Positions 4,521 to 57,704 of a stretch of 64,000 nt of DNA are shown piece by piece (position 1 is the stretch's first letter; each line of letters starts with the position of its first letter). The stretch is from Escherichia coli (GTDB lineage Bacteria; Pseudomonadota; Gammaproteobacteria; Enterobacterales; Enterobacteriaceae): the NCBI RefSeq assembly GCF_013122565.1, contig NZ_CP053258.1, one strand, 5' to 3'. The position numbers and the translations under genes are program-made. Under the pieces are notes generated by a model. The model saw nothing but the letters and a program-made list of their open reading frames with translations, was not told the origin of the DNA and did no database searches.

Positions 4521-4676
4521 TTACAAGAACCAGGGGCGGAAATTCCAGCCCTCTCAATTGTTACGTAGCACGGACAGACTATACGCCTGATGGTCGTTCC
4601 CCATCGGGCCTGAAAACCGCAATACGCTGGGTAACAATCTTCGAGGGTAGCAGTTAACGCTGCTACCCTCTTTTTT
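4514..4676 (+). ncRNA. sroC: SroC-like sRNA derived from gltI-gltJ spacer (3' end at intrinsic terminator)
   Basis: Position between gltI and gltJ matches known SroC locus; 3' end defined by hairpin plus T-tract; 5' end approximate. Confidence 0.5.
4643..4676 (+). terminator. Intrinsic terminator/attenuator between gltI and gltJ
   Basis: GAGGGTAGCAG-TTAAC-GCTGCTACCCTC perfect stem followed by TTTTTT, 14 nt before gltJ ATG. Confidence 0.7.
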
Positions 4677-4689
4677 CTGGAGTAGATTT

Positions 4690-12515: not shown

Positions 12516-13943
12516 TCACCCGAACAGATGGAGTATTTTCCCTATCAAACCAGCAAAGATAAAAATATAGAAAATAATTTTGATGACGCCCAGACAGCCC
12601 GGCCCACCATCATCAACGGGCATTGGTTGCGGTTGCGGCTCCGGTTCGACGGTTTGCTTCTCGGCAAAATTCGCCGACTGAATTAATAACCGTCGAATAA
12701 TTAATGCCTCCAGAGGACAACGATCTTCTGCATCAAGGCGGCTCACAATCGGCATTAATGATTCTTCTGTAGGTTGGCTGGCCTGCACTAATTGTTTGGC
12801 AACTAGATATAATGGCCATAAGGTATGTTCTGTATCACGCGTGAGTGAGATCCGCGGCTTACGTCCTTTGTGCAAAACCATCTCGACCAGTGAACGCCCC
12901 AGAGCAGAGAGTTTTTCATCGCTGAGTATTTCGTATAAATGAAAACGCGTACGGGCGCTGTCGCCGGGGACATAAAGTAGCGGTTTTCCCTGGTCGTTAA
13001 CCAGTTCACGAGCTTCAATCATCATCACCACTAACGGGTAATAATCGACCCGATGCTGACGACACCATTGCAACATTAAAGCATCCGCCTGGGTGGAGGG
13101 ATACTCGCGCCAGTAGTCACAAAGTTCTGCCAGCAGGCTTTCGCCTTCTCCACAATAGACGCGTTGCGCGTATTCATAATAACGCGCATCTTCATTATCA
13201 GGTTCAGCTTCCCGCCACGACCGGGCGTAATCCAGGAGTTCGGGGATATCCAGGCGACCTGCGCTATACCAGCGGAGTAAATTTCTGTGCAGTTTTGCAT
13301 CATCGGGGATAATCACTGCGCGATGTTGCGATAAATACAATGTCAGCCATTCTGGATGCGATGACCAAATCCGGGCGAACATTTGGTAAAAATCGATGGT
13401 GTCATTTTGCACGGCAACGGGCAGATGCAGAATGGTCTGGAAGTTAAAAACATTTCCCTTCGCAATGGCATATAAAAAGGATTCCAGTTCTTCTTCGTCT
13501 ATTTCCCCGGTGTTTTCCTCCTGCAACCACCGCAATCTTTCTGCTAATAACACCACACACTCGAAGGATAAATGGGCAGTGTTCATGGCGATTGTGCACA
13601 GCGACCAGCGTAATTCATCAATCTCTTCCATTGAGCAATAATTTAATTGCTGAATGAATCGCTGCCAGGCGGAAGGCAGAAAACGTTCGCTATCAGAAGC
13701 AAGTAAAGCACGAAAGGCGAGCAGAATTTCATGTTCTGCTACCTCATATTCTTCTGGTTGCCAAACAGATTTAGCAGGCGACTGCGCAATCCGTAGCGCC
13801 TCCTCATACGCCTGACGAAGTTGTTTAAAACCCTGCGGATCGGTTTCTGGATGAAAGGACGGTAACAGCGCCAGATAAGCGCGGCGGATAATATCGACGT
13901 CAGTCGTTTCCTCTATGTTGAGGATCTTCCAGCAATTTTTCAT
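12516..13943 (-). CDS. djlB: J-domain co-chaperone DjlB, 475 aa, C-terminal membrane anchor
   Basis: Paralog of djlC (N-terminal [39 protein letters not shown]); hydrophobic C-terminus. Confidence 0.85.
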
Positions 13944-14647
13944 AGGTCGCTCATATCCTTAAGCGTTTCAGGGCATGCAGAATAGTAAGCCAATGGTTGC
14001 CAGGACAAGGTAGGGTAATACGCATCATCACTGGCAAATAATTGATAAAACATATCATTGCCGGAATCGTCGTATTCTTTACGCGCTAAGAATTCACGTA
14101 ATAACTGAAGATTATCATCTTCGGGAGACTGCCAATATTGCCGACCAAAGGTATAACCGGCAAAGTATTGCTGCCAGTTACTATAATAACGTAGCGCCCG
14201 TAGATGAATGCGCGACTGGATCCATAGACTTTCTTCTTCGCTCAACCAGTTATTAAGTACGCCCATTCGGCTTAAAAAACCCATCCGGACATAATCCCAG
14301 GCTTTGATTCCCCCTTCGCCACAGCATTCGGCGGTGCTGGCGACAAATTGCGCATAAGCCTGACCTTGCTCATTTAGTTCAGCAAGATAGTCACGCCATT
14401 CACACGGAGAATAACGAAACCAGCGGTGATAAAACCCTGCCAACCGAGCGGCATGACCGTTATCGATCATTCGGTGAATTGTGCGCAGCAGGTCATCACG
14501 GTCATCAATTCCCCATGAGGAAGAAAGGTCAAAAAAGCATGTACCTAAATACATTTTGGGAGATGAATGCGAAGGTAAACAGCATTCATTGCGTATTTCC
14601 ATCGGAGTGGAAAGTGCAAACAATATTTTTTGCGACCCCATGTCCAT
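13940..14647 (-). CDS. ybeR: DUF1266-family protein YbeR, 235 aa
   Basis: ORF 13940..14647; paralog of ybeU; 4-nt overlap with djlB start. Confidence 0.85.
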
Positions 14648-33811: not shown

Positions 33812-33840
33812 AAAAAAAACCCGCTGATTAAGCGGGTTTT
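33812..33840. terminator. Bidirectional intrinsic terminator between convergent crcB and cspE
   Basis: A8-CCCGCT-GATTA-AGCGGG-T4; reads as hairpin plus T-run on both strands. Confidence 0.7.
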
Positions 33841-33859
33841 GAATTCTTGCTGACGTATC

Positions 33860-34069
33860 TTACAGAGCGATTACGTTTGCAGCAGAAGGGCCTTTGGCAC
33901 CGTTAGTGATTTCGAACTCTACACGCTGACCTTCAGCAAGAGTTTTAAAACCATTAGTCTGGATTGCAGAGAAGTGTACGAACACGTCTTTGCTGCCGTC
34001 TTCCGGAGTAATGAAACCGAATCCTTTGGACTCATTAAACCACTTAACGTTACCTTTAATCTTAGACAT
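33860..34069 (-). CDS. cspE: Cold-shock-domain protein CspE, 69 aa
   Basis: Start at internal ATG ([20 protein letters not shown]…); RNP1 motif GFGFI. Confidence 0.95.
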
Positions 34070-34243
34070 CAAAATTACCTTTACATGAAAAATAGACACA
34101 AATGCTGTGTCGGTTACCAGTACACCAATTGTGGTACGCTTTGTCCAGTGCAACTTTACTAAAAAGTGATAAAAGTCGCGTTATTTTTGATGTTAATTAT
34201 TTTACTCATTGATTTTAAAGAGTTTACTAAAATTTCATTTGTC

Positions 34244-35393: not shown

Positions 35394-36779
35394 ATGCTGA
35401 CATTCATTGAACTCCTTATTGGGGTTGTGGTTATTGTGGGTGTAGCTCGCTACATCATTAAAGGGTATTCCGCCACTGGTGTGTTATTTGTCGGTGGCCT
35501 GTTATTGCTGATTATCAGTGCCATTATGGGGCACAAAGTGTTACCGTCCAGCCAGGCTTCAACAGGCTACAGCGCCACGGATATCGTTGAATACGTTAAA
35601 ATATTGCTAATGAGCCGCGGCGGCGACCTCGGCATGATGATTATGATGCTGTGTGGCTTTGCCGCTTACATGACCCATATCGGCGCGAATGATATGGTGG
35701 TCAAGCTGGCGTCAAAACCATTGCAGTATATTAACTCCCCTTACCTGCTGATGATTGCCGCCTATTTTGTTGCCTGTCTGATGTCTTTGGCCGTCTCTTC
35801 CGCAACCGGTCTGGGCGTTTTGCTGATGGCTACTCTGTTTCCGGTGATGGTAAACGTTGGTATCAGTCGTGGCGCAGCAGCTGCCATTTGTGCCTCCCCG
35901 GCGGCGATTATTCTCGCACCGACTTCAGGGGATGTGGTGCTGGCGGCACAGGCTTCCGAAATGTCGCTGATTGACTTCGCCTTCAAAACGACGCTGCCTA
36001 TCTCAATTGCTGCAATTATCGGCATGGCGATCGCCCACTTCTTCTGGCAACGTTATCTGGATAAAAAAGAGCACATTTCTCATGAAATGTTAGATGTCAG
36101 TGAAATCACCACCACTGCTCCTGCGTTTTATGCCATTTTGCCGTTCACGCCGATCATCGGTGTACTGATTTTTGACGGTAAATGGGGTCCGCAATTACAC
36201 ATCATCACTATTCTGGTGATTTGTATGCTGATTGCCTCCATTCTGGAGTTTCTCCGCAGCTTTAATACCCAGAAAGTTTTCTCTGGTCTGGAAGTGGCTT
36301 ATCGCGGGATGGCAGATGCGTTTGCTAACGTGGTGATGCTGCTGGTTGCCGCTGGGGTATTCGCTCAGGGGCTTAGCACCATCGGCTTTATTCAAAGTCT
36401 GATTTCTATCGCTACCTCGTTTGGTTCGGCGAGTATCATCCTGATGCTGGTATTGGTGATTCTGACAATGCTGGCGGCAGTCACGACCGGTTCAGGCAAT
36501 GCGCCGTTTTATGCGTTTGTTGAGATGATCCCGAAACTGGCGCACTCTTCCGGCATTAACCCGGCGTATTTGACTATCCCGATGCTGCAGGCGTCAAACC
36601 TGGGCCGTACCCTTTCGCCCGTTTCTGGCGTAGTCGTTGCGGTTGCCGGGATGGCGAAAATCTCACCATTTGAAGTCGTAAAACGCACCTCGGTGCCGGT
36701 GCTTGTTGGGCTGGTGATTGTTATCGTTGCTACAGAGCTGATGGTGCCAGGAACGGCAGCAGCGGTCACAGGCAAGTAA
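35394..36779 (+). CDS. dcuC: Anaerobic C4-dicarboxylate transporter DcuC, 461 aa
   Basis: Polytopic membrane protein; recognised sequence. Confidence 0.9.
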   Translation: MLTFIELLIGVVVIVGVARYIIKGYSATGVLFVGGLLLLIISAIMGHKVLPSSQASTGYSATDIVEYVKILLMSRGGDLGMMIMMLCGFAAYMTHIGANDMVVKLASKPLQYINSPYLLMIAAYFVACLMSLAVSSATGLGVLLMATLFPVMVNVGISRGAAAAICASPAAIILAPTSGDVVLAAQASEMSLIDFAFKTTLPISIAAIIGMAIAHFFWQRYLDKKEHISHEMLDVSEITTTAPAFYAILPFTPIIGVLIFDGKWGPQLHIITILVICMLIASILEFLRSFNTQKVFSGLEVAYRGMADAFANVVMLLVAAGVFAQGLSTIGFIQSLISIATSFGSASIILMLVLVILTMLAAVTTGSGNAPFYAFVEMIPKLAHSSGINPAYLTIPMLQASNLGRTLSPVSGVVVAVAGMAKISPFEVVKRTSVPVLVGLVIVIVATELMVPGTAAAVTGK

Positions 36780-36787
36780 ATAGTAAT

Positions 36788-36815
36788 GCCGGAGGCAAGT
36801 TTCCTCCGGCTTTAT
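36788..36815 (+). terminator. Hairpin after dcuC between convergent dcuC and dpiA
   Basis: GCCGGAGG-N7-CCTCCGGC stem then TTTAT. Confidence 0.45.
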
Positions 36816-36819
36816 CATG

Positions 36820-37500
36820 TCACCCACTGTGGTATATGCGTTGCGGTCTGCCAACTTTGCCGTGAACAATTTCAGCAATAATCAGATGGCGGCTGGCGCA
36901 ATATTCAAGATAACGCCTGGCAGTGGTGCGGCTGATGGTCAATGCCTGCGCCACCGTTTCTGCCGTATGTTGCACACCAGGCTCTTTGAACAATTTTCGC
37001 ACCGCGTTTAGCGTCAAGGGGTCAATGCCGGTCGGCAGTTCGTCTTTGGGTTCACCACGAGCATAGGCATTAAACATCTCATCAATTTGCTTCTGGCTGG
37101 CGCTATCAATACTTTCCAGCATATGTTTACGCTGGCGGAAACGGGTTAGCGTTTGCCCCAGCCGTTCATAGGCAATTGGCTTGATGAGATAATCAAATAC
37201 ACCACAACGTACGGCTTCAGACACCGTTTCCATATCGCTGGCTGCAGTGGTAAACACCACGTCGCCGGGATAATGCGCCTGCACCAGTTCATGCAGTAAA
37301 TTAATCCCTCTACCGTCAGGAAGATAGTTATCGAGCAAGATTAGCCCCGGCTTAAAACGCTCGATCATCATTCGGGCCTGCGCCAGGTTTCCCGCCAGTA
37401 ATATCTGACTGAATCCGGGAATGTGACGAATATATTCCGCATGCATCTCTGCCAGCGGCGTTTCGTCCTCAACGATCAATAGGGTTAATGGAGCTGTCAT
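36820..37500 (-). CDS. dpiA: Two-component response regulator DpiA (CitB), 226 aa
   Basis: Receiver domain (LIVEDE…, LLDNYLPDG) plus C-terminal HTH; overlaps dpiB 3' end. Confidence 0.9.
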   Translation of the reverse strand: MTAPLTLLIVEDETPLAEMHAEYIRHIPGFSQILLAGNLAQARMMIERFKPGLILLDNYLPDGRGINLLHELVQAHYPGDVVFTTAASDMETVSEAVRCGVFDYLIKPIAYERLGQTLTRFRQRKHMLESIDSASQKQIDEMFNAYARGEPKDELPTGIDPLTLNAVRKLFKEPGVQHTAETVAQALTISRTTARRYLEYCASRHLIIAEIVHGKVGRPQRIYHSG

Positions 37501-39127
37501 TAGGTTTCACTTTCGGAATATAGATTGAAAATAAGGTACCGCAGGGATCATTATCTTCGAGAGTGATAACACCACCGCAGCGCGTTACGTAGCTGGCAAT
37601 CAAGTACAACCCAATGCCATGTTCACCGGGCTCGTCAGCACGCGTACTGACCCCCTGCTCAAATATTTTGTCTCGTAGAGACTCTGGAACGCCGCAGCCC
37701 TGATCGGCGACTTCAATCACCACATCATCGCCTTCATCGCTGAGGAATAATTCAACGATCTTGTTTCCTTCATCGCTACGCAGGCTGGCTTCGAAGGCGT
37801 TATCAAGTAAATTGCCCACAATGGCGGCAAACTCGGTGCTATCCAGTCCTGGCGGCAGTTGCGAAAGCTGGCTACCGGGGACGATGATCATTTTTAGCCC
37901 CAGTTCCCGGGCGCGCTGCACTTTACCAAAAAGCAGCCCCGCCACCTGGCGATCGGCAAACGCCTCGCGCAGGCTGTCAATAAGCTGTTGCTGTGCCTGA
38001 GACTCCCCCTGCACCATCGCCAGCACGCGATCATACTCTTTCATCTGCAACAGACCATTGAGCGTCGACATCCAATTGAGATGCTCGTGTCGCAATGTAC
38101 GAAGGCTCTCGACGTATTGTTTTATTTGCGTCAGTTGCGCATTGAGGGTGGAAATTTCGTCTTTACTACGAAAGCTGATAATGGCCCCCAGCAAATCATC
38201 ACCTGAACGAATAGCTTCCCGATTGGCAATAACGCTCAGACCGTTAAAGTTAGCCACCACATCCTGACGTTTTTCATCAATCTGTTCGGTAAAGAAATCG
38301 GCGGGCCTGACCACTTCAGCAATGGGTTTACCCAACCATTGCCGTCCGGGGGAACTCAGCCCCAGCATCTTTCTTGCGTTACGATTGATGGCGGTAATGT
38401 AACCGTGCGGATCCACCGCAATCAGCCCTTCATAAACCGAACTAAATAGCGCCTCTTGCTGACGGACCACGCGTGCGATTTGCTTTGGCTCCATGCCCAT
38501 CATCTGCCGACGGATATGCGCGGCCAGGAACCACGACAGCAACATCAGAATCCCTAACAGCACGACAAACACACCTGCCATTGGTAATAAAAACTCAGCC
38601 CGCCAGCTATCGATTTTACTCACCAGGTAGCCAATCGACACCACGCCGATGACTTTTCCATCGTCATCAAAAATTGGCGTTTTGGCGCGCATCGCCATGC
38701 CCATTGACCCTTTCCCGGTAATGAAGTAGCTCTCCCCTTTCTCCAGCGCGCCCTGTTTGGTGAACTGCATAGGATGACCAATTTTCTCCGGATTAGGATG
38801 GTAAAGGCGGATCGAGTGCCGGTCGCCAATCACCACATAATCAAAATCGGTATCTCTTTGTAATTTGTTAGCGATGGTCGCCAGCCGTTTGTAGTCACGC
38901 GTTTTTACTGCGCTGATGATACTGTCATTAGAAGCAATAATTTTCGCCTGATTCATTGCCATGTCGCGTACATGAAGCGTTAAATAGTCCTCAAAACTGG
39001 CCGTAAAATATTGCGCCAGGGCTGCAATGACAAATATTGAGAACACCAGAATCAGCAAAAAGATACGCAGCGGAAATGCCAGTCTTTGGAAAAATGCAAA
39101 CTGTTTATTCTCGTTAAGCTGCAACAT
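37469..39127 (-). CDS. dpiB: Sensor histidine kinase DpiB (CitA), 552 aa
   Basis: Start at internal ATG 39127; two TM segments flanking periplasmic domain; H-box (RHEHLNWMSTL) and G-box (DQGCGVP). Confidence 0.9.
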   Translation of the reverse strand: MLQLNENKQFAFFQRLAFPLRIFLLILVFSIFVIAALAQYFTASFEDYLTLHVRDMAMNQAKIIASNDSIISAVKTRDYKRLATIANKLQRDTDFDYVVIGDRHSIRLYHPNPEKIGHPMQFTKQGALEKGESYFITGKGSMGMAMRAKTPIFDDDGKVIGVVSIGYLVSKIDSWRAEFLLPMAGVFVVLLGILMLLSWFLAAHIRRQMMGMEPKQIARVVRQQEALFSSVYEGLIAVDPHGYITAINRNARKMLGLSSPGRQWLGKPIAEVVRPADFFTEQIDEKRQDVVANFNGLSVIANREAIRSGDDLLGAIISFRSKDEISTLNAQLTQIKQYVESLRTLRHEHLNWMSTLNGLLQMKEYDRVLAMVQGESQAQQQLIDSLREAFADRQVAGLLFGKVQRARELGLKMIIVPGSQLSQLPPGLDSTEFAAIVGNLLDNAFEASLRSDEGNKIVELFLSDEGDDVVIEVADQGCGVPESLRDKIFEQGVSTRADEPGEHGIGLYLIASYVTRCGGVITLEDNDPCGTLFSIYIPKVKPNDSSINPIDR

Positions 39128-39507
39128 TGTTTTCCTTGCGGGTTGTCCCGAACCTCTTTGACGGATGTAATTAAAATGTTGAATCAAAATACATAGATAT
39201 TAATTATGATCGTGGCAAATTTTATTCATTAAATCAATTAAATCACTTAAACCTGCGGGTCATTTCGCAATTACATTAATTAAAAAACTTAAAACCATTA
39301 AATAAATAAAAAACCACTAACTCTATGTGAAATAAATCAAAATTTCACGCCGAAATACTCCTTAGGATGTATAGCGAAAGGAGAAAAAGATATACCTCGA
39401 TCGCCCTCCCTTTCTCCCAAGTGAAAATAAAAGGTTATCAGTTTGCAACATTGAACAACATTCGTTGCAAATCGATAACAATATGCACCTTCAGGATACT
39501 ATTTATT
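39128..39507. promoter_or_regulatory. Divergent dpiB / citC control region (AT-rich)
   Basis: 380-bp AT-rich spacer between divergent starts; contains palindrome at 39443-39470. Confidence 0.5.
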
Positions 39508-40566
39508 ATGTTCGGCAATGATATTTTCACCCGCGTAAAACGTTCAGAAAATAAAAAAATGGCGGAAATCGCCCAATTCCTGCATGAAAATGATTTGAGC
39601 GTTGACACCACAGTCGAAGTATTTATTACCGTAACCCGCGATGAAAAGCTTATCGCGTGCGGTGGAATTGCCGGAAATATTATTAAATGCGTTGCTATCA
39701 GTGAATCCGTTCGCGGTGAAGGACTGGCGCTAACATTAGCCACTGAATTGATAAACCTCGCCTATGAGCGGCACAGCACGCATCTGTTTATTTATACCAA
39801 AACCGAATACGAGGCGCTGTTCCGCCAGTGCGGTTTTTCCACGCTGACCAGCGTACCTGGCGTGATGGTGCTGATGGAAAACAGCGCCACGCGACTGAAA
39901 CGCTATGCCGAATCGCTGAAAAAATTTCGTCATCCAGGGAACAAGATTGGCTGCATTGTGATGAACGCCAATCCCTTTACGAATGGTCACCGTTATCTGA
40001 TTCAACAGGCTGCGGCACAGTGCGACTGGTTGCATCTGTTTTTAGTCAAAGAAGATTCTTCACGCTTCCCCTATGAAGACCGGCTGGATCTGGTGTTAAA
40101 AGGCACCGCCGATATTCCACGTCTGACTGTGCATCGCGGCTCCGAATACATCATCTCCCGCGCTACGTTCCCTTGCTACTTCATTAAAGAACAGAGCGTC
40201 ATTAACCATTGTTACACCGAAATTGATCTGAAGATTTTCCGTCAGTACCTCGCTCCCGCGCTGGGTGTAACTCACCGCTTTGTCGGTACTGAACCCTTTT
40301 GTCGCGTTACCGCCCAGTACAACCAGGATATGCGCTACTGGCTGGAAACGCCGACTATCTCCGCACCGCCCATCGAACTGGTTGAAATTGAGCGGCTGCG
40401 TTACCAGGAGATGCCGATATCCGCTTCCCGGGTACGTCAACTGCTGGCGAAAAACGATCTCACGGCTATCGCGCCGCTGGTCCCTGCAGTCACGCTGCAT
40501 TATTTGCAGAACCTGCTTGAGCACTCCCGCCAGGACGCGGCAGCTCGTCAAAAGACCCCCGCATGA
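39508..40566 (+). CDS. citC: [Citrate (pro-3S)-lyase] ligase CitC, 352 aa
   Basis: Start at internal ATG 39508; N-terminal GNAT-like plus nucleotidyltransferase-like region; first gene of cit operon. Confidence 0.85.
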   Translation: MFGNDIFTRVKRSENKKMAEIAQFLHENDLSVDTTVEVFITVTRDEKLIACGGIAGNIIKCVAISESVRGEGLALTLATELINLAYERHSTHLFIYTKTEYEALFRQCGFSTLTSVPGVMVLMENSATRLKRYAESLKKFRHPGNKIGCIVMNANPFTNGHRYLIQQAAAQCDWLHLFLVKEDSSRFPYEDRLDLVLKGTADIPRLTVHRGSEYIISRATFPCYFIKEQSVINHCYTEIDLKIFRQYLAPALGVTHRFVGTEPFCRVTAQYNQDMRYWLETPTISAPPIELVEIERLRYQEMPISASRVRQLLAKNDLTAIAPLVPAVTLHYLQNLLEHSRQDAAARQKTPA

Positions 40567-40580
40567 GAAACAGGTGAAAA

Positions 40581-40877
40581 ATGAAAATAAACCAGCCCGC
40601 CGTTGCAGGCACCCTTGAGTCTGGGGATGTGATGATACGCATCGCCCCACTCGATACGCAGGATATCGACCTGCAAATCAACAGCAGCGTTGAGAAACAG
40701 TTTGGCGATGCAATTCGCACCACCATTCTGGACGTTCTCGCCCGCTACAACGTGCGCGGCGTACAGCTGAATGTCGATGACAAAGGCGCACTGGACTGCA
40801 TTTTACGTGCACGACTGGAAGCCCTGCTGGCACGCGCCAGCGGTATCCCGGCTCTGCCATGGGAGGATTGCCAATGA
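40581..40877 (+). CDS. citD: Citrate lyase acyl carrier (gamma) subunit CitD, 98 aa
   Basis: ORF 40581..40877; recognised sequence. Confidence 0.9.
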
Positions 40878-41782
40878 TTTCCGCTTCGCTGCAACAACGT
40901 AAAACTCGCACCCGCCGCAGCATGTTGTTTGTGCCTGGTGCCAATGCCGCGATGGTCAGCAACTCCTTCATCTACCCGGCTGATGCCCTGATGTTTGACC
41001 TCGAAGACTCCGTGGCATTACGTGAAAAAGACACCGCCCGCCGCATGGTTTATCACGCGCTGCAACATCCGCTGTATCGCGATATTGAAACCATTGTGCG
41101 TGTCAACGCGCTGGATTCCGAATGGGGTGTTAACGACCTGGAAGCCGTCGTTCGCGGTGGTGCGGACGTTGTGCGTCTGCCGAAAACCGATACCGCTCAG
41201 GATGTTCTGGATATCGAAAAAGAGATCCTGCGTATCGAAAAAGCCTGTGGTCGTGAACCCGGCAGCACCGGCCTGCTGGCGGCGATTGAATCTCCGCTGG
41301 GCATTACCCGCGCAGTGGAAATCGCTCACGCTTCCGAGCGTTTGATCGGTATCGCCCTCGGTGCAGAAGACTATGTGCGCAACCTGCGTACAGAACGCTC
41401 CCCGGAAGGAACTGAACTGCTGTTCGCTCGCTGCTCCATTTTGCAGGCCGCGCGCTCTGCGGGTATTCAGGCGTTCGATACCGTCTATTCCGACGCTAAC
41501 AACGAAGCCGGATTCCTGCAAGAAGCCGCCCACATCAAACAGCTGGGATTTGACGGCAAATCGCTGATCAACCCGCGTCAGATTGATCTGCTGCACAACC
41601 TCTACGCACCAACCCAGAAAGAAGTGGATCACGCCCGCCGCGTCGTAGAAGCCGCTGAAGCCGCCGCTCGCGAAGGCCTCGGCGTGGTTTCCCTGAACGG
41701 CAAGATGGTGGACGGTCCGGTTATCGATCGCGCCCGTCTGGTGCTCTCCCGTGCAGAACTTTCCGGCATCCGCGAAGAATAA
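40874..41782 (+). CDS. citE: Citrate lyase beta subunit CitE, 302 aa
   Basis: ATG at 40874 overlapping citD stop (ATGA); HpcH/CitE aldolase-family sequence. Confidence 0.9.
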
Positions 41783-41792
41783 GGCAATCAAA

Positions 41793-43325
41793 ATGACGCA
41801 GAAAATTGAACAATCTCAACGACAAGAACGGGTAGCGGCCTGGAATCGTCGCGCTGAATGCGATCTTGCCGCTTTCCAGAACTCGCCAAAGCAAACCTAC
41901 CAGGCTGAAAAAGCGCGCGATCGCAAACTGTGCGCCAACCTGGAAGAAGCGATTCGTCGCTCTGGTTTACAGGACGGCATGACGGTTTCCTTCCATCACG
42001 CTTTCCGTGGCGGTGACCTGACCGTCAATATGGTGATGGACGTCATCGCAAAGATGGGCTTTAAAAACCTGACCCTGGCGTCCAGCTCCCTGAGTGATTG
42101 CCATGCGCCGCTGGTAGAACACATTCGCCAGGGCGTGGTTACCCGCATTTATACCTCCGGCCTGCGTGGTCCACTGGCGGAAGAGATCTCCCGTGGTCTG
42201 CTGGCAGAACCGGTGCAAATCCACTCTCACGGCGGACGTGTGCATCTGGTACAGAGCGGCGAATTGAATATCGACGTGGCTTTCCTCGGCGTCCCGTCCT
42301 GTGATGAATTCGGTAATGCCAACGGCTACACCGGTAAAGCCTGCTGCGGCTCCCTCGGTTATGCAATGGTTGATGCCGACAACGCAAAACAGGTCGTGAT
42401 GCTTACCGAAGAACTGCTGCCTTATCCGCATAATCCGGCAAGCATTGAGCAAGATCAGGTTGATTTGATCGTCAAAGTTGACCGCGTTGGCGATGCCGCG
42501 AAAATCGGCGCTGGCGCGACCCGTATGACCACTAACCCACGCGAACTGCTTATTGCCCGTAGCGCTGCGGATGTGATTGTCAACTCTGGCTACTTCAAAG
42601 AAGGTTTCTCCATGCAAACCGGTACCGGTGGCGCGTCGCTTGCGGTAACCCGTTTCCTGGAAGACAAAATGCGTAGCCGCGATATTCGCGCCGACTTCGC
42701 CCTCGGCGGTATTACCGCGACGATGGTTGATCTGCACGAAAAAGGTCTGATCCGCAAACTGCTGGATGTGCAGAGCTTTGACAGCCATGCTGCGCAATCG
42801 CTGGCCCGTAACCCCAATCACATCGAAATCAGCGCCAACCAGTACGCTAATTGGGGTTCGAAAGGCGCATCGGTTGATCGTCTCGACGTGGTGGTACTGA
42901 GCGCGCTGGAAATTGACACCCAGTTCAACGTTAACGTACTGACCGGCTCTGACGGCGTACTGCGCGGCGCTTCCGGTGGTCACTGCGATACCGCGATTGC
43001 CTCTGCGCTTTCCATCATCGTCGCGCCGCTGGTACGCGGTCGTATTCCGACTCTGGTGGATAACGTGCTGACCTGCATCACCCCGGGCTCCAGTGTCGAT
43101 ATTCTGGTCACAGACCACGGTATCGCAGTTAACCCGGCACGTCCGGAACTAGCAGAACGTCTGCAGGAAGCGGGCATTAAAGTGGTTTCCATTGAGTGGC
43201 TGCGCGAACGTGCGCGTCTGCTGACCGGTGAACCACAGCCGATTGAATTCACCGACCGCGTCGTTGCCGTTGTGCGTTACCGCGATGGCTCGGTGATCGA
43301 TGTTGTGCATCAGGTGAAGGAATAA
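41793..43325 (+). CDS. citF: Citrate lyase alpha subunit CitF, 510 aa
   Basis: ATG at 41793 with AAGG upstream; recognised sequence. Confidence 0.9.
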   Translation: MTQKIEQSQRQERVAAWNRRAECDLAAFQNSPKQTYQAEKARDRKLCANLEEAIRRSGLQDGMTVSFHHAFRGGDLTVNMVMDVIAKMGFKNLTLASSSLSDCHAPLVEHIRQGVVTRIYTSGLRGPLAEEISRGLLAEPVQIHSHGGRVHLVQSGELNIDVAFLGVPSCDEFGNANGYTGKACCGSLGYAMVDADNAKQVVMLTEELLPYPHNPASIEQDQVDLIVKVDRVGDAAKIGAGATRMTTNPRELLIARSAADVIVNSGYFKEGFSMQTGTGGASLAVTRFLEDKMRSRDIRADFALGGITATMVDLHEKGLIRKLLDVQSFDSHAAQSLARNPNHIEISANQYANWGSKGASVDRLDVVVLSALEIDTQFNVNVLTGSDGVLRGASGGHCDTAIASALSIIVAPLVRGRIPTLVDNVLTCITPGSSVDILVTDHGIAVNPARPELAERLQEAGIKVVSIEWLRERARLLTGEPQPIEFTDRVVAVVRYRDGSVIDVVHQVKE

Positions 43326-43328
43326 GCC

Positions 43329-44733
<1,405 letters not shown>

Positions 44734-44783
44734 TTATTTAAGCACTTGATAAATTTGGAAATATTAATTTTCGGAGAACCCGT

Positions 44784-46247
44784 ATGTCTTTAGCAAAAGA
44801 TAATATATGGAAACTATTGGCCCCACTGGTGGTGATGGGTGTCATGTTTCTTATCCCTGTCCCCGACGGTATGCCGCCGCAGGCATGGCATTACTTCGCT
44901 GTGTTTGTGGCAATGATTGTCGGCATGATCCTCGAGCCAATTCCGGCAACAGCGATCAGTTTTATTGCGGTTACTATTTGCGTTATTGGCAGTAATTACC
45001 TGCTCTTTGATGCCAAAGAATTAGCTGACCCAGCGTTTAATGCGCAAAAACAGGCACTGAAATGGGGTCTGGCTGGTTTTTCCAGCACCACGGTATGGCT
45101 GGTATTTGGCGCATTTATTTTTGCATTAGGGTATGAAGTTTCCGGGTTAGGTCGTCGCATTGCCCTTTTCCTGGTGAAATTCATGGGCAAACGCACGCTG
45201 ACGTTGGGTTATGCGATTGTCATTATCGACATTCTGCTGGCACCGTTTACACCGTCCAACACCGCGCGTACCGGGGGTACGGTTTTTCCGGTCATTAAAA
45301 ACCTGCCGCCGCTGTTTAAATCATTCCCGAACGATCCGTCCGCGCGTCGTATTGGCGGCTATTTAATGTGGATGATGGTCATTAGTACCAGTCTGAGTTC
45401 GTCTATGTTTGTCACCGGTGCGGCACCAAACGTGCTGGGTCTGGAGTTCGTCAGCAAAATTGCCGGTATCCAGATTAGCTGGTTGCAGTGGTTCCTCTGC
45501 TTCCTGCCGGTTGGGGTTATCTTGCTTATCATTGCGCCGTGGCTTTCCTACGTGCTGTACAAACCGGAAATCACACACAGTGAAGAAGTGGCAACCTGGG
45601 CGGGTGATGAACTAAAAACCATGGGGGCGCTGACACGCAGAGAGTGGACGCTGATTGGCCTTGTATTGCTCAGCTTAGGTTTGTGGGTATTTGGCAGTGA
45701 AGTCATTAATGCTACTGCGGTTGGTCTGCTGGCAGTTTCGCTAATGCTGGCCCTGCACGTTGTGCCGTGGAAAGACATTACCCGTTATAACAGCGCATGG
45801 AACACGCTGGTCAACCTGGCAACTCTGGTTGTGATGGCTAACGGCCTGACTCGTTCTGGTTTTATTGACTGGTTCGCCGGTACCATGAGTACGCACCTGG
45901 AAGGATTCTCACCAAACGCAACGGTGATTGTACTGGTTCTGGTGTTCTACTTTGCACACTACCTGTTTGCCAGCCTGTCTGCGCACACCGCAACCATGCT
46001 GCCGGTTATTCTGGCCGTCGGTAAAGGTATTCCGGGCGTACCAATGGAACAACTGTGTATCCTGCTGGTGCTGTCTATCGGTATCATGGGCTGTCTGACG
46101 CCGTATGCAACCGGTCCTGGGGTGATTATTTATGGCTGTGGCTATGTGAAATCAAAAGATTACTGGCGTCTTGGCGCAATCTTCGGGGTGATTTACATCT
46201 CTATGTTGCTGTTGGTTGGCTGGCCGATTCTCGCCATGTGGAACTAA
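44784..46247 (+). CDS. citT: Citrate/succinate antiporter CitT, 487 aa
   Basis: Polytopic membrane protein; follows citG. Confidence 0.9.
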   Translation: MSLAKDNIWKLLAPLVVMGVMFLIPVPDGMPPQAWHYFAVFVAMIVGMILEPIPATAISFIAVTICVIGSNYLLFDAKELADPAFNAQKQALKWGLAGFSSTTVWLVFGAFIFALGYEVSGLGRRIALFLVKFMGKRTLTLGYAIVIIDILLAPFTPSNTARTGGTVFPVIKNLPPLFKSFPNDPSARRIGGYLMWMMVISTSLSSSMFVTGAAPNVLGLEFVSKIAGIQISWLQWFLCFLPVGVILLIIAPWLSYVLYKPEITHSEEVATWAGDELKTMGALTRREWTLIGLVLLSLGLWVFGSEVINATAVGLLAVSLMLALHVVPWKDITRYNSAWNTLVNLATLVVMANGLTRSGFIDWFAGTMSTHLEGFSPNATVIVLVLVFYFAHYLFASLSAHTATMLPVILAVGKGIPGVPMEQLCILLVLSIGIMGCLTPYATGPGVIIYGCGYVKSKDYWRLGAIFGVIYISMLLLVGWPILAMWN

Positions 46248-46278
46248 TACGTTCGCCAAACGCTGAATAAATCATCAC

Positions 46279-46312
46279 GCCCGCCAGGTAAGCCCACCTG
46301 GCGGGCTTTTTT
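46279..46312 (+). terminator. Strong intrinsic terminator after citT
   Basis: GCCCGCCAGG-N8-CCTGGCGGGC perfect 10-bp stem followed by TTTTTT. Confidence 0.75.
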
Positions 46313-46360
46313 ATGATTTAATAGATAGTATTCAGTGTATGTATGAGTTCCACACCCATT

Positions 46361-47167
46361 ATGAAAGCATTCTGGCGTAACGCCGCGTTGCTCGCGGTTT
46401 CTCTGCTTCCCTTCTCTTCTGCCAACGCCGTGGCGTTGCAGGCAAAACAGTATGGCGATTTTGATCGCTATGTCCTTGCCCTCTCCTGGCAAACCGGATT
46501 TTGCCAGAGTCAACACGATCGAAATCGTAACGAACGAGATGAATGTCGCCTGCAAACCGAAACGACCAACAAAACTGATTTTCTGACCGTACATGGTCTG
46601 TGGCCAGGATTGCCTAAATCGGTTGCTGCCCGTGGTGTTGATGAACGCCGCTGGATGCGCTTCGGTTGCGCTACTCGCCCAATCCCAAATCTGCCAGAAG
46701 CGCGCGCCAGCCGGATGTGTTCATCGCCGGAAACCGGGTTATCACTGGAAACGGCAGCTAAACTAAGTGAAGTCATGCCAGGAGCTGGCGGACGTTCCTG
46801 CCTGGAACGCTACGAATATGCCAAACACGGTGCCTGCTTTGGTTTTGATCCGGACGCATACTTCGGTACGATGGTACGCCTGAATCAAGAAATTAAAGAG
46901 AGCGAAGCCGGAAAATTCCTTGCGGATAATTACGGTAAAACAGTGAGCCGCCGTGACTTTGACGCCGCCTTTGCCAAAAGCTGGGGAAAAGAGAACGTGA
47001 AAGCAGTTAAGCTAACGTGCCAGGGTAACCCTGCGTATTTGACTGAAATTCAGATCTCGATCAAAGCTGACGCCATCAACGCTCCGCTTTCTGCAAACTC
47101 ATTCTTGCCACAACCACACCCAGGCAACTGTGGCAAAACCTTTGTGATTGATAAAGTGGGTTATTAA
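46361..47167 (+). CDS. rna: Periplasmic RNase I (RNase T2 family), 268 aa
   Basis: Start at internal ATG 46361; signal peptide; CAS motifs (FTVHGLWPG, YAKHGACFG). Confidence 0.9.
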   Translation: MKAFWRNAALLAVSLLPFSSANAVALQAKQYGDFDRYVLALSWQTGFCQSQHDRNRNERDECRLQTETTNKTDFLTVHGLWPGLPKSVAARGVDERRWMRFGCATRPIPNLPEARASRMCSSPETGLSLETAAKLSEVMPGAGGRSCLERYEYAKHGACFGFDPDAYFGTMVRLNQEIKESEAGKFLADNYGKTVSRRDFDAAFAKSWGKENVKAVKLTCQGNPAYLTEIQISIKADAINAPLSANSFLPQPHPGNCGKTFVIDKVGY

Positions 47168-47396
47168 TCATCTGATTTACAAAACACGCTAATTCGTCTC
47201 CCATAAACCATGACGATTAAGATTTATACATAATGCGCTGCATTGAGGAATTCCCTGAATGTGACGCAAATCACTTCAAAGAGTGAGCAACAGTCAGTAT
47301 CATCATGTGAGTTAAACCCTCGCCGCCTGACGGTGAGGGTTTTCTTTTGGGTATGTTTATCTGCGACACTCGCAGTACCGACGACATGGAGTAAAA

Positions 47397-47807
47397 ATGT
47401 CCAGACCAACTATCATCATTAACGACCTGGATGCCGAACGCATCGATATTCTGCTGGAGCAACCCGCCTATGCTGGTTTGCCAATCGCCGACGCGTTAAA
47501 CGCAGAGTTGGATCGCGCCCAAATGTGTTCGCCAGAAGAGATGCCACACGACGTGGTGACAATGAACAGCCGGGTTAAATTCCGCAATCTTAGCGATGGC
47601 GAAGTGCGTGTGCGCACGCTGGTGTATCCGGCAAAAATGACCGATAGCAATACTCAGCTTTCCGTTATGGCTCCGGTAGGTGCCGCACTGCTGGGACTGC
47701 GCGTTGGCGATTCCATTCACTGGGAACTTCCGGGCGGCGTTGCAACCCACCTTGAAGTGCTGGAACTCGAATACCAGCCAGAAGCTGCTGGCGACTACCT
47801 GCTTTAA
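47397..47807 (+). CDS. rnk: Regulator of nucleoside diphosphate kinase Rnk (GreA/B-like), 136 aa
   Basis: ORF 47397..47807; recognised sequence. Confidence 0.9.
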
Positions 47808-51719: not shown

Positions 51720-51781
51720 TAATTAGGTGAATTTCCGAAGTATTTCGCGCCGGAGTTGGTAGCGCGAAAGACGAAGGAAAT

Positions 51782-52718: not shown

Positions 52719-53465
52719 ATGCTAAAAAAGTCACTTTTAATGACAATGCTACCTGCCATTGCCTTCGCAGAGGAACTTCCTGCTCCAGTAAAAGCGATTG
52801 AAAAACAGGGCATTACAATCATCAAAACGTTCGATGCCCCCGGAGGAATGAAAGGTTATCTCGGAAAGTATCAGGATATGGGCGTCACCATCTACCTGAC
52901 TCCAGATGGTAAGCACGCTATCTCTGGTTACATGTACAACGAGAAAGGTGAAAACCTGAGTAACACACTTATCGAAAAAGAAATTTACGCACCAGCCGGA
53001 CGCGAAATGTGGCAACGGATGGAACAATCCCACTGGCTCCTCGACGGTAAAAAAGACGCGCCGGTCATTGTCTACGTCTTCGCCGATCCGTTCTGCCCAT
53101 ATTGTAAACAGTTCTGGCAGCAGGCGCGCCCGTGGGTAGATTCTGGCAAAGTGCAGTTGAGAACATTGTTGGTTGGGGTTATCAAACCAGAAAGTCCGGC
53201 GACAGCCGCGGCAATTCTTGCCTCCAAAGATCCCGCAAAAACCTGGCAAGAATATGAAGCCTCTGGTGGCAAGCTTAAGCTAAACGTGCCTGCAAACGTA
53301 AGTACAGAGCAAATGAAAGTGTTAAGCGATAACGAGCAACTCATGGACGATCTGGGGGCAAATGTCACACCCGCTATCTATTACATGAGTAAGGAAAATA
53401 CGTTGCAACAAGCCGTGGGGTTGCCCGATCAGAAAACGCTTAATATCATTATGGGAAATAAATAA
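52719..53465 (+). CDS. dsbG: Periplasmic disulfide isomerase DsbG, 248 aa
   Basis: Signal peptide; CPYC thioredoxin-fold active site. Confidence 0.95.
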
Positions 53466-53477
53466 AAGATAATTCAT

Positions 53478-53513
53478 GGATGGTTGAAATATACCCCTGC
53501 TTTTCAACCATCC
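53478..53513 (+). terminator. Stem-loop 12 nt after dsbG stop
   Basis: GGATGGTTGAAA / TTTCAACCATCC perfect 12-bp stem, 12-nt loop; weak T-tract. Confidence 0.45.
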
Positions 53514-53672
53514 TTAAAACGCATGAATTGCTCGCTCTGTGCCAGATGGCTGTGCTATTTTAGAAAAACTTAATCCTGAGTTAAGCAAAAAAACATAATC
53601 AATAAAAATATATACGCAAAAACATTGATTAAGTGAATACTTCATGGAAGAAAAATATAACCGGAGTACTGT

Positions 53673-54575
53673 ATGGCCAATCTCTACGACCTGAAAAAGT
53701 TCGACTTAAATCTTCTTGTCATCTTTGAGTGCATTTATAAACACTTAAGCATAAGCAAGGCTGCTGAGTCATTATATATCACTCCATCAGCAGTGAGTCA
53801 GTCGTTACAACGCTTACGTGCGCAATTTAATGACCCTTTATTCATTCGCTCAGGAAAAGGTATCACGCCAACTACGACAGGGTTAAATTTACACAATCAC
53901 CTTGAGAAAAACCTCAGAGGTCTTGAGCAAACAATCAATCTTGTTAATAAATCGGAAGTAAAGAAAAATTTTATTATCTACGGTCCTCAGCTCATCTCCT
54001 GTTCTCATAACCGCATGCTGATCCGCTGCCTACGGCAAGATACCTCGGTCGAGATTGAGTGCCATGACACACTTATTTCAGCCGAGAATGCTGAAGAACT
54101 GTTGGTTCATCGCAAAGCCGATCTGGTGATCACTCAAATGCCAGTGATCAGTCGTTCCGTCATTTGTATGCCATTGCATACGATTCGTAATACCCTAATT
54201 TGTAGTAATAAACATCCCCGGATTACAGATACCAGTACTTACGAACAAATTATGGAAGAAGAGTTCACCCAATTAATTTCCAAATCATCGGGGCTTGATG
54301 ACATTCAAATGGAAATAGACGAGAGGTTTATAAATCGTAAAATTGCCTTTCGTGGCTCCTCTTTATTGGCGATCATAAATAGCATTGCGATTACAGATTT
54401 GCTAGGAATAGTTCCCTTTGAACTTTATGAATCCCACCAAGAATCTCTTAATTTAAAGGAAATAAAACTAGAGCACCCCCTACCCTTGGTTAAGCTTTAC
54501 ATTTGTTACAACAAGACTTCTCTAAACAACCTGGCATTCTCACGATTCATTGACAGATTGAATGATAATTCTTGA
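53673..54575 (+). CDS. ybdO: LysR-family transcriptional regulator YbdO, 300 aa
   Basis: N-terminal HTH (ISKAAESLYITPSAVSQSLQRLR); AT-rich gene. Confidence 0.85.
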   Translation: MANLYDLKKFDLNLLVIFECIYKHLSISKAAESLYITPSAVSQSLQRLRAQFNDPLFIRSGKGITPTTTGLNLHNHLEKNLRGLEQTINLVNKSEVKKNFIIYGPQLISCSHNRMLIRCLRQDTSVEIECHDTLISAENAEELLVHRKADLVITQMPVISRSVICMPLHTIRNTLICSNKHPRITDTSTYEQIMEEEFTQLISKSSGLDDIQMEIDERFINRKIAFRGSSLLAIINSIAITDLLGIVPFELYESHQESLNLKEIKLEHPLPLVKLYICYNKTSLNNLAFSRFIDRLNDNS

Positions 54576-54720
54576 TATATAGATTCAGAGAGAGGCTACA
54601 TCCTTTCATTTCTATTCATTTCATCAATAAAAAATAAAATACTCTACCTTACAGGACTTACTTTATAATTAACGACCTTATCTCACTGATCACCCTGTAA
54701 CGTTCAGAGAGCGTATTTAG

Positions 54721-55941
54721 ATGTCTATTTATAAAATTCCTCTTCCACTCAATATTCTGGAAGCTGCACGAGAGCGTATTACCTGGACACTCAATACCCT
54801 ACCCCGCGTTTGTGTCTCATTTTCTGGCGGCAAAGACTCTGGTTTAATGCTGCATCTGACAGCCGACCTTGCCCGACAAATGGGCAAAAAAATCTGCGTT
54901 TTGTTTATCGACTGGGAAGCGCAGTTCTCATGCACTATCAACTATGTTCAGTCACTACGCGAGTTTTACGCCGATGTCATCGAAGAGTTTTACTGGGTTG
55001 CGCTCCCGCTTACGACGCAAAATTCCCTTTCACAATACCAACCCGAATGGCAGTGCTGGGAACCTGATGTCGAATGGGTGCGTCAGCCCCCGCAAGATGC
55101 GATAACCGATCCTGACTTTTTCTCCTTTTACCAGCCAGGCATGACCTTCGAACAATTTGTACGTGAGTTTGCCGAATGGTTTTCACAAAAACGTCCGGCG
55201 GCGATGATGATCGGCATCCGTGCGGATGAGTCCTACAATCGTTTTGTCGCCATCGCCAGTTTAAATAAACAACGTTTTGCCGACGATAAACCCTGGACTA
55301 CGGCCGCGCCAGGCGGTCATAGCTGGTACATATACCCCATCTACGACTGGAAAGTCGCCGATATCTGGACCTGGTATGCTAAAAACCAAAGCCTCTGTAA
55401 CCCACTGTATAATCTGATGTATCAGGCAGGTGTCCCTCTGCGTCATATGCGAATTTGCGAACCTTTTGGCCCGGAGCAACGGCAAGGATTATGGCTCTAT
55501 CACGTCATCGAACCGGATCGCTGGGCGGCCATGTGCGCACGAGTCAGCGGAGTAAAAAGTGGCGGCATTTACGCCGGACATGACAACCATTTTTATGGTC
55601 ATCGTAAAATCCTCAAGCCGGAACATTTAGACTGGCAGGAGTATGCATTATTGCTACTCAGCAGCATGCCGGTGAAAACAGCTGAACATTACCGTAATAA
55701 AATCGCCATTTATTTGCACTGGTATCAGAAAAAAGGCATCGAGGTTCCACAAACCCAACAAGGGGACATTGGCGCGAAAGATATCCCCTCCTGGCGGCGA
55801 ATATGCAAAGTTTTACTCAACAACGATTACTGGTGCCGGGCATTATCATTTAGCCCCACAAAAGCGAAGAATTATCAGCGTTATAACGAACGGATAAAAG
55901 GAAAACGTCAGGAATGGGGGATACTATGCAACAACGATTAA
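54721..55941 (+). CDS. ybdN: PP-loop / PAPS-reductase-like protein YbdN, 406 aa
   Basis: N-terminal PP-loop SFSGGKDS; ORF 54721..55941. Confidence 0.85.
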   Translation: MSIYKIPLPLNILEAARERITWTLNTLPRVCVSFSGGKDSGLMLHLTADLARQMGKKICVLFIDWEAQFSCTINYVQSLREFYADVIEEFYWVALPLTTQNSLSQYQPEWQCWEPDVEWVRQPPQDAITDPDFFSFYQPGMTFEQFVREFAEWFSQKRPAAMMIGIRADESYNRFVAIASLNKQRFADDKPWTTAAPGGHSWYIYPIYDWKVADIWTWYAKNQSLCNPLYNLMYQAGVPLRHMRICEPFGPEQRQGLWLYHVIEPDRWAAMCARVSGVKSGGIYAGHDNHFYGHRKILKPEHLDWQEYALLLLSSMPVKTAEHYRNKIAIYLHWYQKKGIEVPQTQQGDIGAKDIPSWRRICKVLLNNDYWCRALSFSPTKAKNYQRYNERIKGKRQEWGILCNND

Positions 55942-56543
55942 CGCAGGATTTAACGCAATTTCTCGCCAGCTTGCCGGAAGACGATCGCATCAAAGCGATT
56001 AATGAAATCCGCATGGCGATCCATCAGGTAAGTCCTTTTCGGGAAGAGCCGGTGGATTGTGTTTTGTGGGTCAAAAATGATCAGCTTGTGCCAAATGATT
56101 ACAACCCAAACAACGTGGCACCGCCCGAGAAAAAATTGCTGAAAAAATCCATTGAAACTGATGGTTTTACCCAACCCATTGTGGTGACCAACACGACAGC
56201 CAATTCACTTGAAATCGTTGATGGTTTTCACCGCCATGAAATCGGTAAAGGATCATCATCATTAAAACTACGCTTAAAAGGTTATTTACCGGTGACCTGC
56301 CTGGAGGGGACGCGTAATCAGCGCATCGCCGCGACTATTCGTCATAATCGCGCTCGTGGACGCCATCAAATCACCGCCATGTCGGAAATCGTCCGTGAAC
56401 TTAGCCTGTTGGGATGGGACGATAATAAAATTGGCAAAGAGCTGGGAATGGACAGCGACGAAGTGCTGCGCCTGAAGCAAATTAACGGCCTGCAAGAGTT
56501 GTTTGCCGACCGTCAATATTCCCGCGCCTGGACTGTCAAATAA
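55914..56543 (+). CDS. ybdM: ParB/sulfiredoxin-like domain protein YbdM, 209 aa
   Basis: DGFHR motif; 28-nt overlap with ybdN. Confidence 0.85.
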   Translation: MGDTMQQRLTQDLTQFLASLPEDDRIKAINEIRMAIHQVSPFREEPVDCVLWVKNDQLVPNDYNPNNVAPPEKKLLKKSIETDGFTQPIVVTNTTANSLEIVDGFHRHEIGKGSSSLKLRLKGYLPVTCLEGTRNQRIAATIRHNRARGRHQITAMSEIVRELSLLGWDDNKIGKELGMDSDEVLRLKQINGLQELFADRQYSRAWTVK

Positions 56544-57704
56544 CTACAGCTGGCGCAGGCGTTCAGCTGCTGCCAGCAACGTCGATTCCTTCTTGGCAAA
56601 ACAGAGACGAATCAGTTTATGTGGGAAGGGATCGGCGCAAAACACCGATAGCGGAATCGCCGCTACGCCGTGCTCCTGCGTCAGCCACTGGCAAAACTCA
56701 ACATCATCCAGGGTAGATACGGCGCTGTAATCCACCAGCAAAAAGTATGTGCCTTCGCACGGTAAAATCTCCAGCCGACTTTCATTTAAGGCGTTAACCA
56801 GAATATCGCGCTTCTGGCGATAAAAGTCCGGTAACGCAAGATAATGCTCAGGTTCTGCACGTAGCATATCGGCAAGCGCCAGCTGTGCCGGGGTATTTAC
56901 CGAAAAGGTCAGATACTGATGTACCTTGCGAATTTCGGCACTGATGGGCGCTGGCGCAACGCAATAACCCACTTTCCAGCCGGTCATATGATAGGTCTTG
57001 CCAAACGATGACACCGCCACCGCCCGCTCACGCAACTGCGGATGCGCCAGCACACTGGCATGGCCCTGTTGTGAAAAGTTGATGTGCTCGTAGACTTCAT
57101 CGCTAATGACAAAAATCTCGTGCCCGGCGATCGCCTGCCACAAAGCGGCGAAATCAGCCTGCTGCCAGACAGTTGCACTGGGGTTATGCGGAGTGTTGAG
57201 GATCACCAGTCGGGTGCGCTCGCTTAACAATGCGGCAAATTCCTGCCAGTCAACGCGAAAATGCGGTGGTTGCAGTGCCATACGCTTCACTATTCCCCCA
57301 GAAAGCGCGATGGCGGGGGCGTAACTGTCATAGCTGGGATCAAAACAAATCACTTCATCGCCATTGCGCACCAATGCGGTAATCGCCGCGTATAACGCCT
57401 CCGTCGCCCCTGCCGTTACGGTGATATCGCTGTCGGCATCCGGTTGATAGCCATACAGACGTTCCGTTTTCTGAGCAATCGCCTCGCGCAAGGCCTGCAC
57501 GCCGCTCATGGGCGCGTATTGGTTTGCCCCCTGGGCAACGTGGTACGCCAGTCGCTCTTGTAAATAGCGCGGACCATCAAAATCAGGAAAGCCTTGCGAA
57601 AGGTTAATCGCCTGGTGTTGCTGCGCCAGCGCGCTCATCTGGGTGAAAATAGTGGTGCCAAGTTGTGGAAGTTTGCTTTGTGGAATCAGAGGGTTATTTG
57701 TCAT
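56544..57704 (-). CDS. ybdL: PLP-dependent methionine aminotransferase YbdL, 386 aa
   Basis: Class I aminotransferase; PLP lysine in SFGKTYHMTGWKVGY. Confidence 0.9.
   Translation of the reverse strand: MTNNPLIPQSKLPQLGTTIFTQMSALAQQHQAINLSQGFPDFDGPRYLQERLAYHVAQGANQYAPMSGVQALREAIAQKTERLYGYQPDADSDITVTAGATEALYAAITALVRNGDEVICFDPSYDSYAPAIALSGGIVKRMALQPPHFRVDWQEFAALLSERTRLVILNTPHNPSATVWQQADFAALWQAIAGHEIFVISDEVYEHINFSQQGHASVLAHPQLRERAVAVSSFGKTYHMTGWKVGYCVAPAPISAEIRKVHQYLTFSVNTPAQLALADMLRAEPEHYLALPDFYRQKRDILVNALNESRLEILPCEGTYFLLVDYSAVSTLDDVEFCQWLTQEHGVAAIPLSVFCADPFPHKLIRLCFAKKESTLLAAAERLRQL

Follow-up and report, generated by a model that had tools for sequence, protein, structure and literature searches.

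We analyzed a 64,000-nt stretch of Escherichia coli DNA (contig NZ_CP053258.1; hereafter, the window), in which positions 36820-46247, a segment of about 9.4 kb, contain nine genes for the sensing, uptake, and cleavage of citrate (the cit locus). Genes were called from a map of the open reading frames (ORFs) between 34 and 49 kb and by comparison with the annotated genomes of E. coli K-12 MG1655 and strain GF3-3. The locus sits between dcuC and rna in these comparisons, with dcuC and dpiA convergent. An earlier reading of this DNA from its letters alone (the sequence-only reading) had described a sensor kinase and regulator pair, dpiBA, divergent from citCDEFXG-citT, a unit encoding a ligase, three lyase subunits, both prosthetic-group enzymes, and an antiporter. 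The limits that it gave for the locus fall exactly on the dpiA and citT stop codons, and both the gene content and the arrangement were borne out by the ORF map, by protein family models, and by 99-100% protein identity to K-12. We also looked for frameshifts and missing subunits and found neither: compared gene by gene with K-12 MG1655, all nine genes start with ATG, have the K-12 length, and contain no internal stops (Table 1).

Table 1. Positions in the window of the genes and other features of the cit locus, its flanks, and the citR region.
Feature	Position	Strand	Product or description	Length	Amino acid differences from K-12
dpiA (citB)	36820-37500	-	response regulator	226 aa	0
dpiB (citA)	37469-39127	-	citrate sensor histidine kinase	552 aa	3
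dpiB-citC divergent control region	39128-39507		intergenic spacer, GC content 0.35	380 bp	
citC	39508-40566	+	[citrate (pro-3S)-lyase] ligase, acetylating activator of the lyase	352 aa	0
citD	40581-40877	+	citrate lyase gamma subunit / acyl carrier protein	98 aa	0
citE	40874-41782	+	citrate lyase beta subunit (citryl-ACP lyase; ACP, acyl carrier protein)	302 aa	0
citF	41793-43325	+	citrate lyase alpha subunit (citrate:acetyl-ACP transferase)	510 aa	1
citX	43329-43880	+	holo-ACP synthase (apo-citrate lyase phosphoribosyl-dephospho-CoA transferase; CoA, coenzyme A)	183 aa	2
citG	43855-44733	+	triphosphoribosyl-dephospho-CoA synthase	292 aa	1
citT	44784-46247	+	citrate:succinate antiporter (DASS family)	487 aa	0
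Predicted intrinsic terminator ending citCDEFXGT	46279-46312	+	stem-loop 46279-46306, then TTTTTT		
Bidirectional terminator-like hairpin	36788-36810	both	between dcuC and dpiA; left edge of the dpiBA unit		
dcuC	35394-36779		flanking gene		
rna	46361-47167		flanking gene		
rnk	47397-47807		flanking gene		
citR/ybdO	53673-54575		LysR-type regulator, 7.4 kb from the cit locus		
ybdN	54721-55941				
ybdM	55914-56543				

The genes within each unit are closely packed. The dpiB and dpiA frames overlap by 32 nt, citD and citE by 4 nt (ATGA, in which the ATG of citE lies on the TGA of citD), and citX and citG by 26 nt, all in agreement with the sequence-only reading. Such overlaps suggest that the overlapping gene pairs may be translationally coupled. 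The remaining junctions of the plus-strand unit are gaps of 14 nt (citC-citD), 10 nt (citE-citF), 3 nt (citF-citX), and 50 nt (citG-citT), each of these four with a Shine-Dalgarno-like purine run. Longer ORFs were available for citC (from 39367), dpiB (from a TTG at 39187), citE (from 40859), and citF (from a GTG at 41751), and were dropped in favor of the K-12/RefSeq starts. The longer citC frame was ruled out on two further counts, as it is broken by indels of 1-2 nt between lineages at 39406-39407 and as the match to the family model starts only at residue 7 of the shorter protein. The GC content of the citC-citG segment (39500-44500) is mostly 0.53-0.58, compared with about 0.50 in dpiBA, citT, and the surrounding genes, and this higher G+C may reflect an ancient horizontal acquisition of the lyase genes.

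Protein similarity searches, which had been proposed as a check on the gene assignments, supported all of them. Eight of the nine proteins (DpiA, DpiB, CitC, CitD, CitE, CitF, CitX, and CitG) scored above the curated cut-off of an NCBIfam model that bears the name of their function, at E-values between 1e-42 and 0, so chance matches are no concern, and the Pfam architectures agree with the NCBIfam assignments. DpiA matched the equivalog model NF007467 at 520 bits (cut-off 264) and contains the Pfam Response_reg domain and a DpiA-like HTH_64 domain. DpiB, which shows no differences from the protein of strain GF3-3, matched NF011627 at 1226 bits (cut-off 656) and contains the Pfam domains sCache_3_2, PAS_4, SPOB_a, and HATPase_c. 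Between them, the two proteins provide the complete domain set of a kinase and regulator: a periplasmic sCache/PAS domain, a cytoplasmic PAS domain, DHp, and HATPase_c in the kinase, and a receiver with a DpiA-type helix-turn-helix in the regulator. Moreover, the periplasmic domain of DpiB could be aligned with the structure of the Klebsiella pneumoniae CitA citrate receptor (1P0Z; E = 2e-21), and in this alignment the R-x-x-H (RLYH; R107, H110) and R-x-K (R147, K149) motifs of DpiB match the CitA residues. We take R107/H110 and R147/K149 to be the citrate-contacting residues, going by the CitA structure.

The lyase holoenzyme set is likewise complete, with the subunits CitF, CitE, and CitD and the maturation enzymes CitG, CitX, and CitC all scoring above cut-off. 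CitC matched TIGR00124 at 594 bits (cut-off 262; Pfam Citrate_ly_lig), CitD matched TIGR01608 at 100 bits (cut-off 63.5) as well as NF009726 (Pfam ACP/MdcD family), CitE matched TIGR01588 at 452 bits (cut-off 443), and CitF matched TIGR01584 at 816 bits (cut-off 501) and the Pfam CitF family at 938 bits. For the other two maturation enzymes, CitX was above the cut-offs of NF002383 and TIGR03124, and CitG reached 647 bits on NF007503 (cut-off 477). CitD retains Ser14 in the motif GTLESGD, and this serine is presumably the attachment site of the prosthetic group. CitT passed only the general DASS subfamily model TIGR00785, at 573 bits (Pfam Na_sulph_symp), and is named here because it is 100% identical to the characterized CitT of K-12.

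The strong terminator that the sequence-only reading had placed after citT was recovered by a terminator scan. Its hairpin, which begins 31 nt past the citT stop, has an 11-bp stem with nine G-C pairs, a 6-nt loop, and a T6 tract, and the 78 nt that follow the citT stop fold at -30.4 kcal/mol (z = -5.4 versus shuffled sequences). With its G+C-rich hairpin and U tract, this element is predicted to be an intrinsic (Rho-independent) terminator. At the other edge of the locus, the hairpin between dcuC and dpiA has an 8-bp stem with seven G-C pairs and was scored on both strands. The scan found no terminator inside the cit operon, including none on the plus strand between the end of citG at 44733 and the start of citT at 44784.

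The spacer between dpiB and citC is better conserved than synonymous sites. When seven Escherichia lineages were aligned, a core at 39269-39372 proved nearly invariant, with three invariant runs of 26-27 columns each; synonymous divergence (dS) in the genes on either side is about 0.5 substitutions per site. The spacer also contains two palindromes, TGTGAAAT-N8-ATTTCACG at 39326-39349 and a 16-nt inverted repeat (39434-39449 / 39464-39479) directly upstream of citC. The first was considered as a CRP site and rejected: it resembles the half-sites, but its TGTGA and TCAC are 14 nt apart instead of 6. The second folds as RNA at -16.5 kcal/mol (z = -4.5). Across the seven lineages, however, it shows zero compensatory changes and some of its pairs are broken, so an RNA structure is not favored over a DNA operator. 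Scanning with Rfam gave no match to any RNA family within the cit locus.

With nine intact genes in the K-12 arrangement, the cit locus is very probably a canonical E. coli-type ("locus I") module for the anaerobic co-fermentation of citrate. The mechanism that we propose for it draws on established knowledge of the protein families. The periplasmic PAS/sCache domain of DpiB (CitA) would bind citrate, leading to autophosphorylation and transfer of the phosphate to DpiA (CitB), and phosphorylated DpiA would, under anoxia, activate divergent promoters in the A+T-rich 380-bp spacer. The citCDEFXGT genes would be read as a single transcript up to the hairpin after citT. CitG would make 2'-(5''-triphosphoribosyl)-3'-dephospho-CoA, CitX would attach this product to Ser14 of CitD, and CitC would acetylate the thiol. 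CitF would then swap the acetyl group for citryl, and CitE would cleave citryl-ACP to oxaloacetate and restore acetyl-ACP, for a predicted net reaction in which citrate yields acetate plus oxaloacetate. CitT would import external citrate in exchange for internal succinate. With no oxaloacetate decarboxylase in the cit locus, its reduction to succinate must depend on enzymes whose genes lie outside the locus, probably malate dehydrogenase, fumarase, and fumarate reductase, and the reducing power would come from a co-substrate, for example, glucose. The module would thus allow citrate to be fermented along with a second substrate but not to serve as the only one.

Several steps of this scheme have been described in the literature. 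The citCDEFXGT genes are regulated by CitA/CitB (PMC3694859), a system reported to activate the cit genes (PMC9456408). In wild-type E. coli, CitT is expressed only anaerobically and citrate is assimilated only together with a fermentable co-substrate, while oxaloacetate is reduced to succinate by reverse reactions of the tricarboxylic acid (TCA) cycle and exchanged via CitT (PMC5918244, which cites Lutgens and Gottschalk 1980 for the co-substrate need of E. coli). The sequence-only reading had called the locus complete and self-contained. This description fits the steps from citrate sensing and import to its cleavage and the maturation of the enzyme, but not the whole pathway, as the window contains no oadGAB or CitS and a co-substrate is needed (PMC5918244).

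The cit locus varies little among E. coli genomes. Its nucleotide identity to K-12 is about 98-99%, and the 1-2% divergence is almost all synonymous, with seven amino acid substitutions over the nine proteins; dpiA, for instance, has 13 nucleotide changes and no amino acid change. The sole indels in the 9.4 kb, relative to both K-12 and GF3-3, are the 2 nt at 39406-39407, an intergenic insertion with respect to K-12. The locus is present at a coverage of at least 80% in 5407 of 5426 complete E. coli genomes (99.6%) and thus belongs to the core genome. Over the cit locus, the best identity of any complete RefSeq E. coli genome to the window is at most 99.0%, and only one E. coli chromosome on record encodes CitX and RNase I proteins identical to those of the window (QJU25090.1 and QJU27899.1). 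Together, these results indicate that the window comes from a sparsely sampled lineage of E. coli.

Relatives were found by scanning species-representative genomes with a 30-mer from citD, which yielded E. albertii, E. whittamii, and three more Escherichia lineages, all with DNA 89-95% identical to that of the window. The cit genes covered are intact, free of gaps, and in the same order in all five; all nine genes are spanned in E. albertii only, where the locus also includes dcuC, rna, and rnk. Relative to E. albertii, the ratio of nonsynonymous to synonymous divergence (dN/dS) is 0.009-0.087 per gene and 0.034 for the nine genes pooled. These values argue that the cit genes are maintained by strong purifying selection and make a decaying or cryptic locus unlikely.

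The sequence-only reading had also credited the locus with its own two-component system. The dpiBA genes are indeed present, but they are not the only reported local regulator, since the window also encodes CitR (YbdO), for which repression of ybdNM and an effect on citCDEF have been reported (PMC9068703). The stretch comprising citR and ybdNM (53400-56600) is the most divergent of the window, with an identity to K-12 of 86.7% at 54001-55000, and the CitR protein is 89.3% identical to K-12 CitR. Among 5422 complete E. coli genomes, the citR allele of the window is matched at 99% or more in 9, at 95-99% in 5, at 90-95% in 3630, and at 80-90% in 1778. The CitR alleles of E. coli therefore form at least three deeply separated classes, of which a rare one (14 of 5422 genomes at 95% or more) is found here beside a cit locus conserved at 98-99%. 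It is conceivable, if doubtful, that the core of about 100 bp at 39269-39372 and the two palindromes of the control region contain operators bound by regulators that have yet to be placed in this region, such as CitR/YbdO; combined with the CitR allele classes, lineages might then differ in how they set the expression of citrate lyase.

Over its full length, the window aligns collinearly, at about 98% identity, with the reverse strand of K-12 627289-692557. Indels with respect to K-12 are of 1-3 nt except for two: IS5D (K-12 687851-689045, between gltI and lnt) is missing at about 3505-3512 of the window, and approximately 80 bp of the ahpC-ahpF spacer (K-12 639529-639608) are missing at 51755-51762. 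Window positions 10788-11560 and 13585-14620 cross-match paralogous K-12 neighbors (ybeR/ybeU and djlB/djlC) at 67-69%, which reflects the known tandem paralog pairs beside hscC. Next to the cit locus, Rfam identified an rnk leader at 47243-47351 (+; 125 bits) upstream of rnk, and the 3' end of citG, citT, rna, the rnk leader, and rnk lie in the ancestral single-copy arrangement within 43855-47807. Two further Rfam matches are expected for E. coli, a cspA-type thermoregulator 5' untranslated region over cspE and its leader at 33812-34170 (-; 126 bits) and the small RNA sroC in the gltI-gltJ spacer at 4516-4678 (+; 168 bits).

Several observations weigh against interpreting the cit locus as a co-fermentation module. 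Citrate- and anoxia-dependent expression, like co-fermentation itself, is known from literature on other strains only. A promoter scan of the control region found no consensus sigma-70 promoter, although such an absence fits activator-dependent promoters. CitX differs from K-12 by A107V and E131A in an allele recorded from one genome only, and A107 is nearly invariant in the aligned Escherichia sequences, a point softened by the conservative nature of the A107V change. Neither oadGAB nor citS was found in the 64-kb window, and the annotation of the collinear K-12 segment contains no oad or citS. This result bears on whether the locus could be a fully self-sufficient, Klebsiella-type citrate fermentation cluster that allows anaerobic growth on citrate alone. 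Sensor, regulator, carrier, three lyase subunits, and three maturation enzymes are all in place, and the genes form a genomic unit, which E. coli and Salmonella both have in the rna-dcuC interval, this locus I being without citS-oadGAB; in K. pneumoniae, rna is next to dcuC with nothing between them (PMC2735749). Yet the citS-oadGAB genes, which are part of both the Klebsiella cluster and locus II of Salmonella, are missing from the window, and E. coli requires a co-substrate (PMC5918244), which makes self-sufficiency very improbable.

Equally to be considered is a locus that is cryptic or decaying in this lineage, with reading frames that are formally intact and no longer used. The 9.4 kb without frameshifts or stops, the almost exclusively synonymous differences from K-12, the low dN/dS values relative to E. 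albertii, a control region more conserved than synonymous sites, and retention of the locus in nearly all complete E. coli genomes render this extremely unlikely, even though E. coli is the classic citrate-negative species, the genes are not expressed in air, the CitX allele is unique among sequences on record, and the nearby citR is a rare and strongly divergent allele. DpiBA might also act mainly outside citrate metabolism, with its linkage to the cit genes being secondary: DpiA would bind A+T-rich replication origins, destabilize plasmids, and induce SOS after PBP3 inhibition. A role of DpiBA in the SOS induction that beta-lactams cause through PBP3 inhibition has been reported (PMC6591824), and a link of DpiBA to plasmid inheritance appears in the reference list of PMC9456408. 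We give this proposal hardly any credence, as all Escherichia lineages examined have dpiBA divergent from citC, the citrate-receptor motifs are retained in the DpiB periplasmic domain, and CitA/CitB is reported to activate the cit genes; the two roles are, moreover, mutually compatible. The co-fermentation module is, in our judgment, the interpretation to be retained.

The cit locus is already known and represents ordinary core-genome biology of E. coli, and its description as well described is justified by its K-12 counterpart and the literature. A useful correction is that it is not a stand-alone fermentation pathway, and its wider interest is historical and contextual.

Comparison with known systems places the locus within this background. 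Its sensor and regulator belong to the same families as DcuS/DcuR, with DpiB matching the DcuS/MalK model at 343 bits and DpiA matching the DcuR model at 135 bits. Both scores are below cut-off, whereas the DpiB and DpiA equivalog models are passed in full. The malonate decarboxylase (mdc) system shares the cofactor logic of 2'-(5''-phosphoribosyl)-3'-dephospho-CoA, and CitG matches MdcB at 254 bits, also below cut-off. In contrast to that system, CitG, CitX, and CitD pass citrate-specific rather than malonate equivalogs here, and genes for an mdc carboxyltransferase or decarboxylase are missing. The 13-kb island of K. pneumoniae (citS-oadGAB-citAB / citCDEFG) likewise has a divergent lyase operon, a CitA/CitB system, and the same lyase chemistry. 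However, it carries CitS and OadGAB in the sensor operon, has no citT, and has citX elsewhere, whereas in the window CitT and CitX are encoded but Oad and CitS are not. Closer still by its published description (PMC2735749), locus I of Salmonella enterica LT2, with citAB divergent from citCDEFXGT, has the same gene set, arrangement, and rna-dcuC position; Salmonella LT2 additionally has locus II with citS-oadGAB, which confers autonomous citrate fermentation and has no equivalent in the window. The counterpart in E. coli K-12 MG1655, b0612-b0620, differs from the locus only by the nucleotide divergence, substitutions, and 2-nt insertion given above, and has the same nine genes in the same order, on the same strands, and with the same lengths, overlaps (32, 4, and 26 nt), flanks, and terminator position. 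The flanking genes, dcuC on one side and rna-rnk on the other, are identical to those of K-12 (b0612-b0621) and GF3-3.

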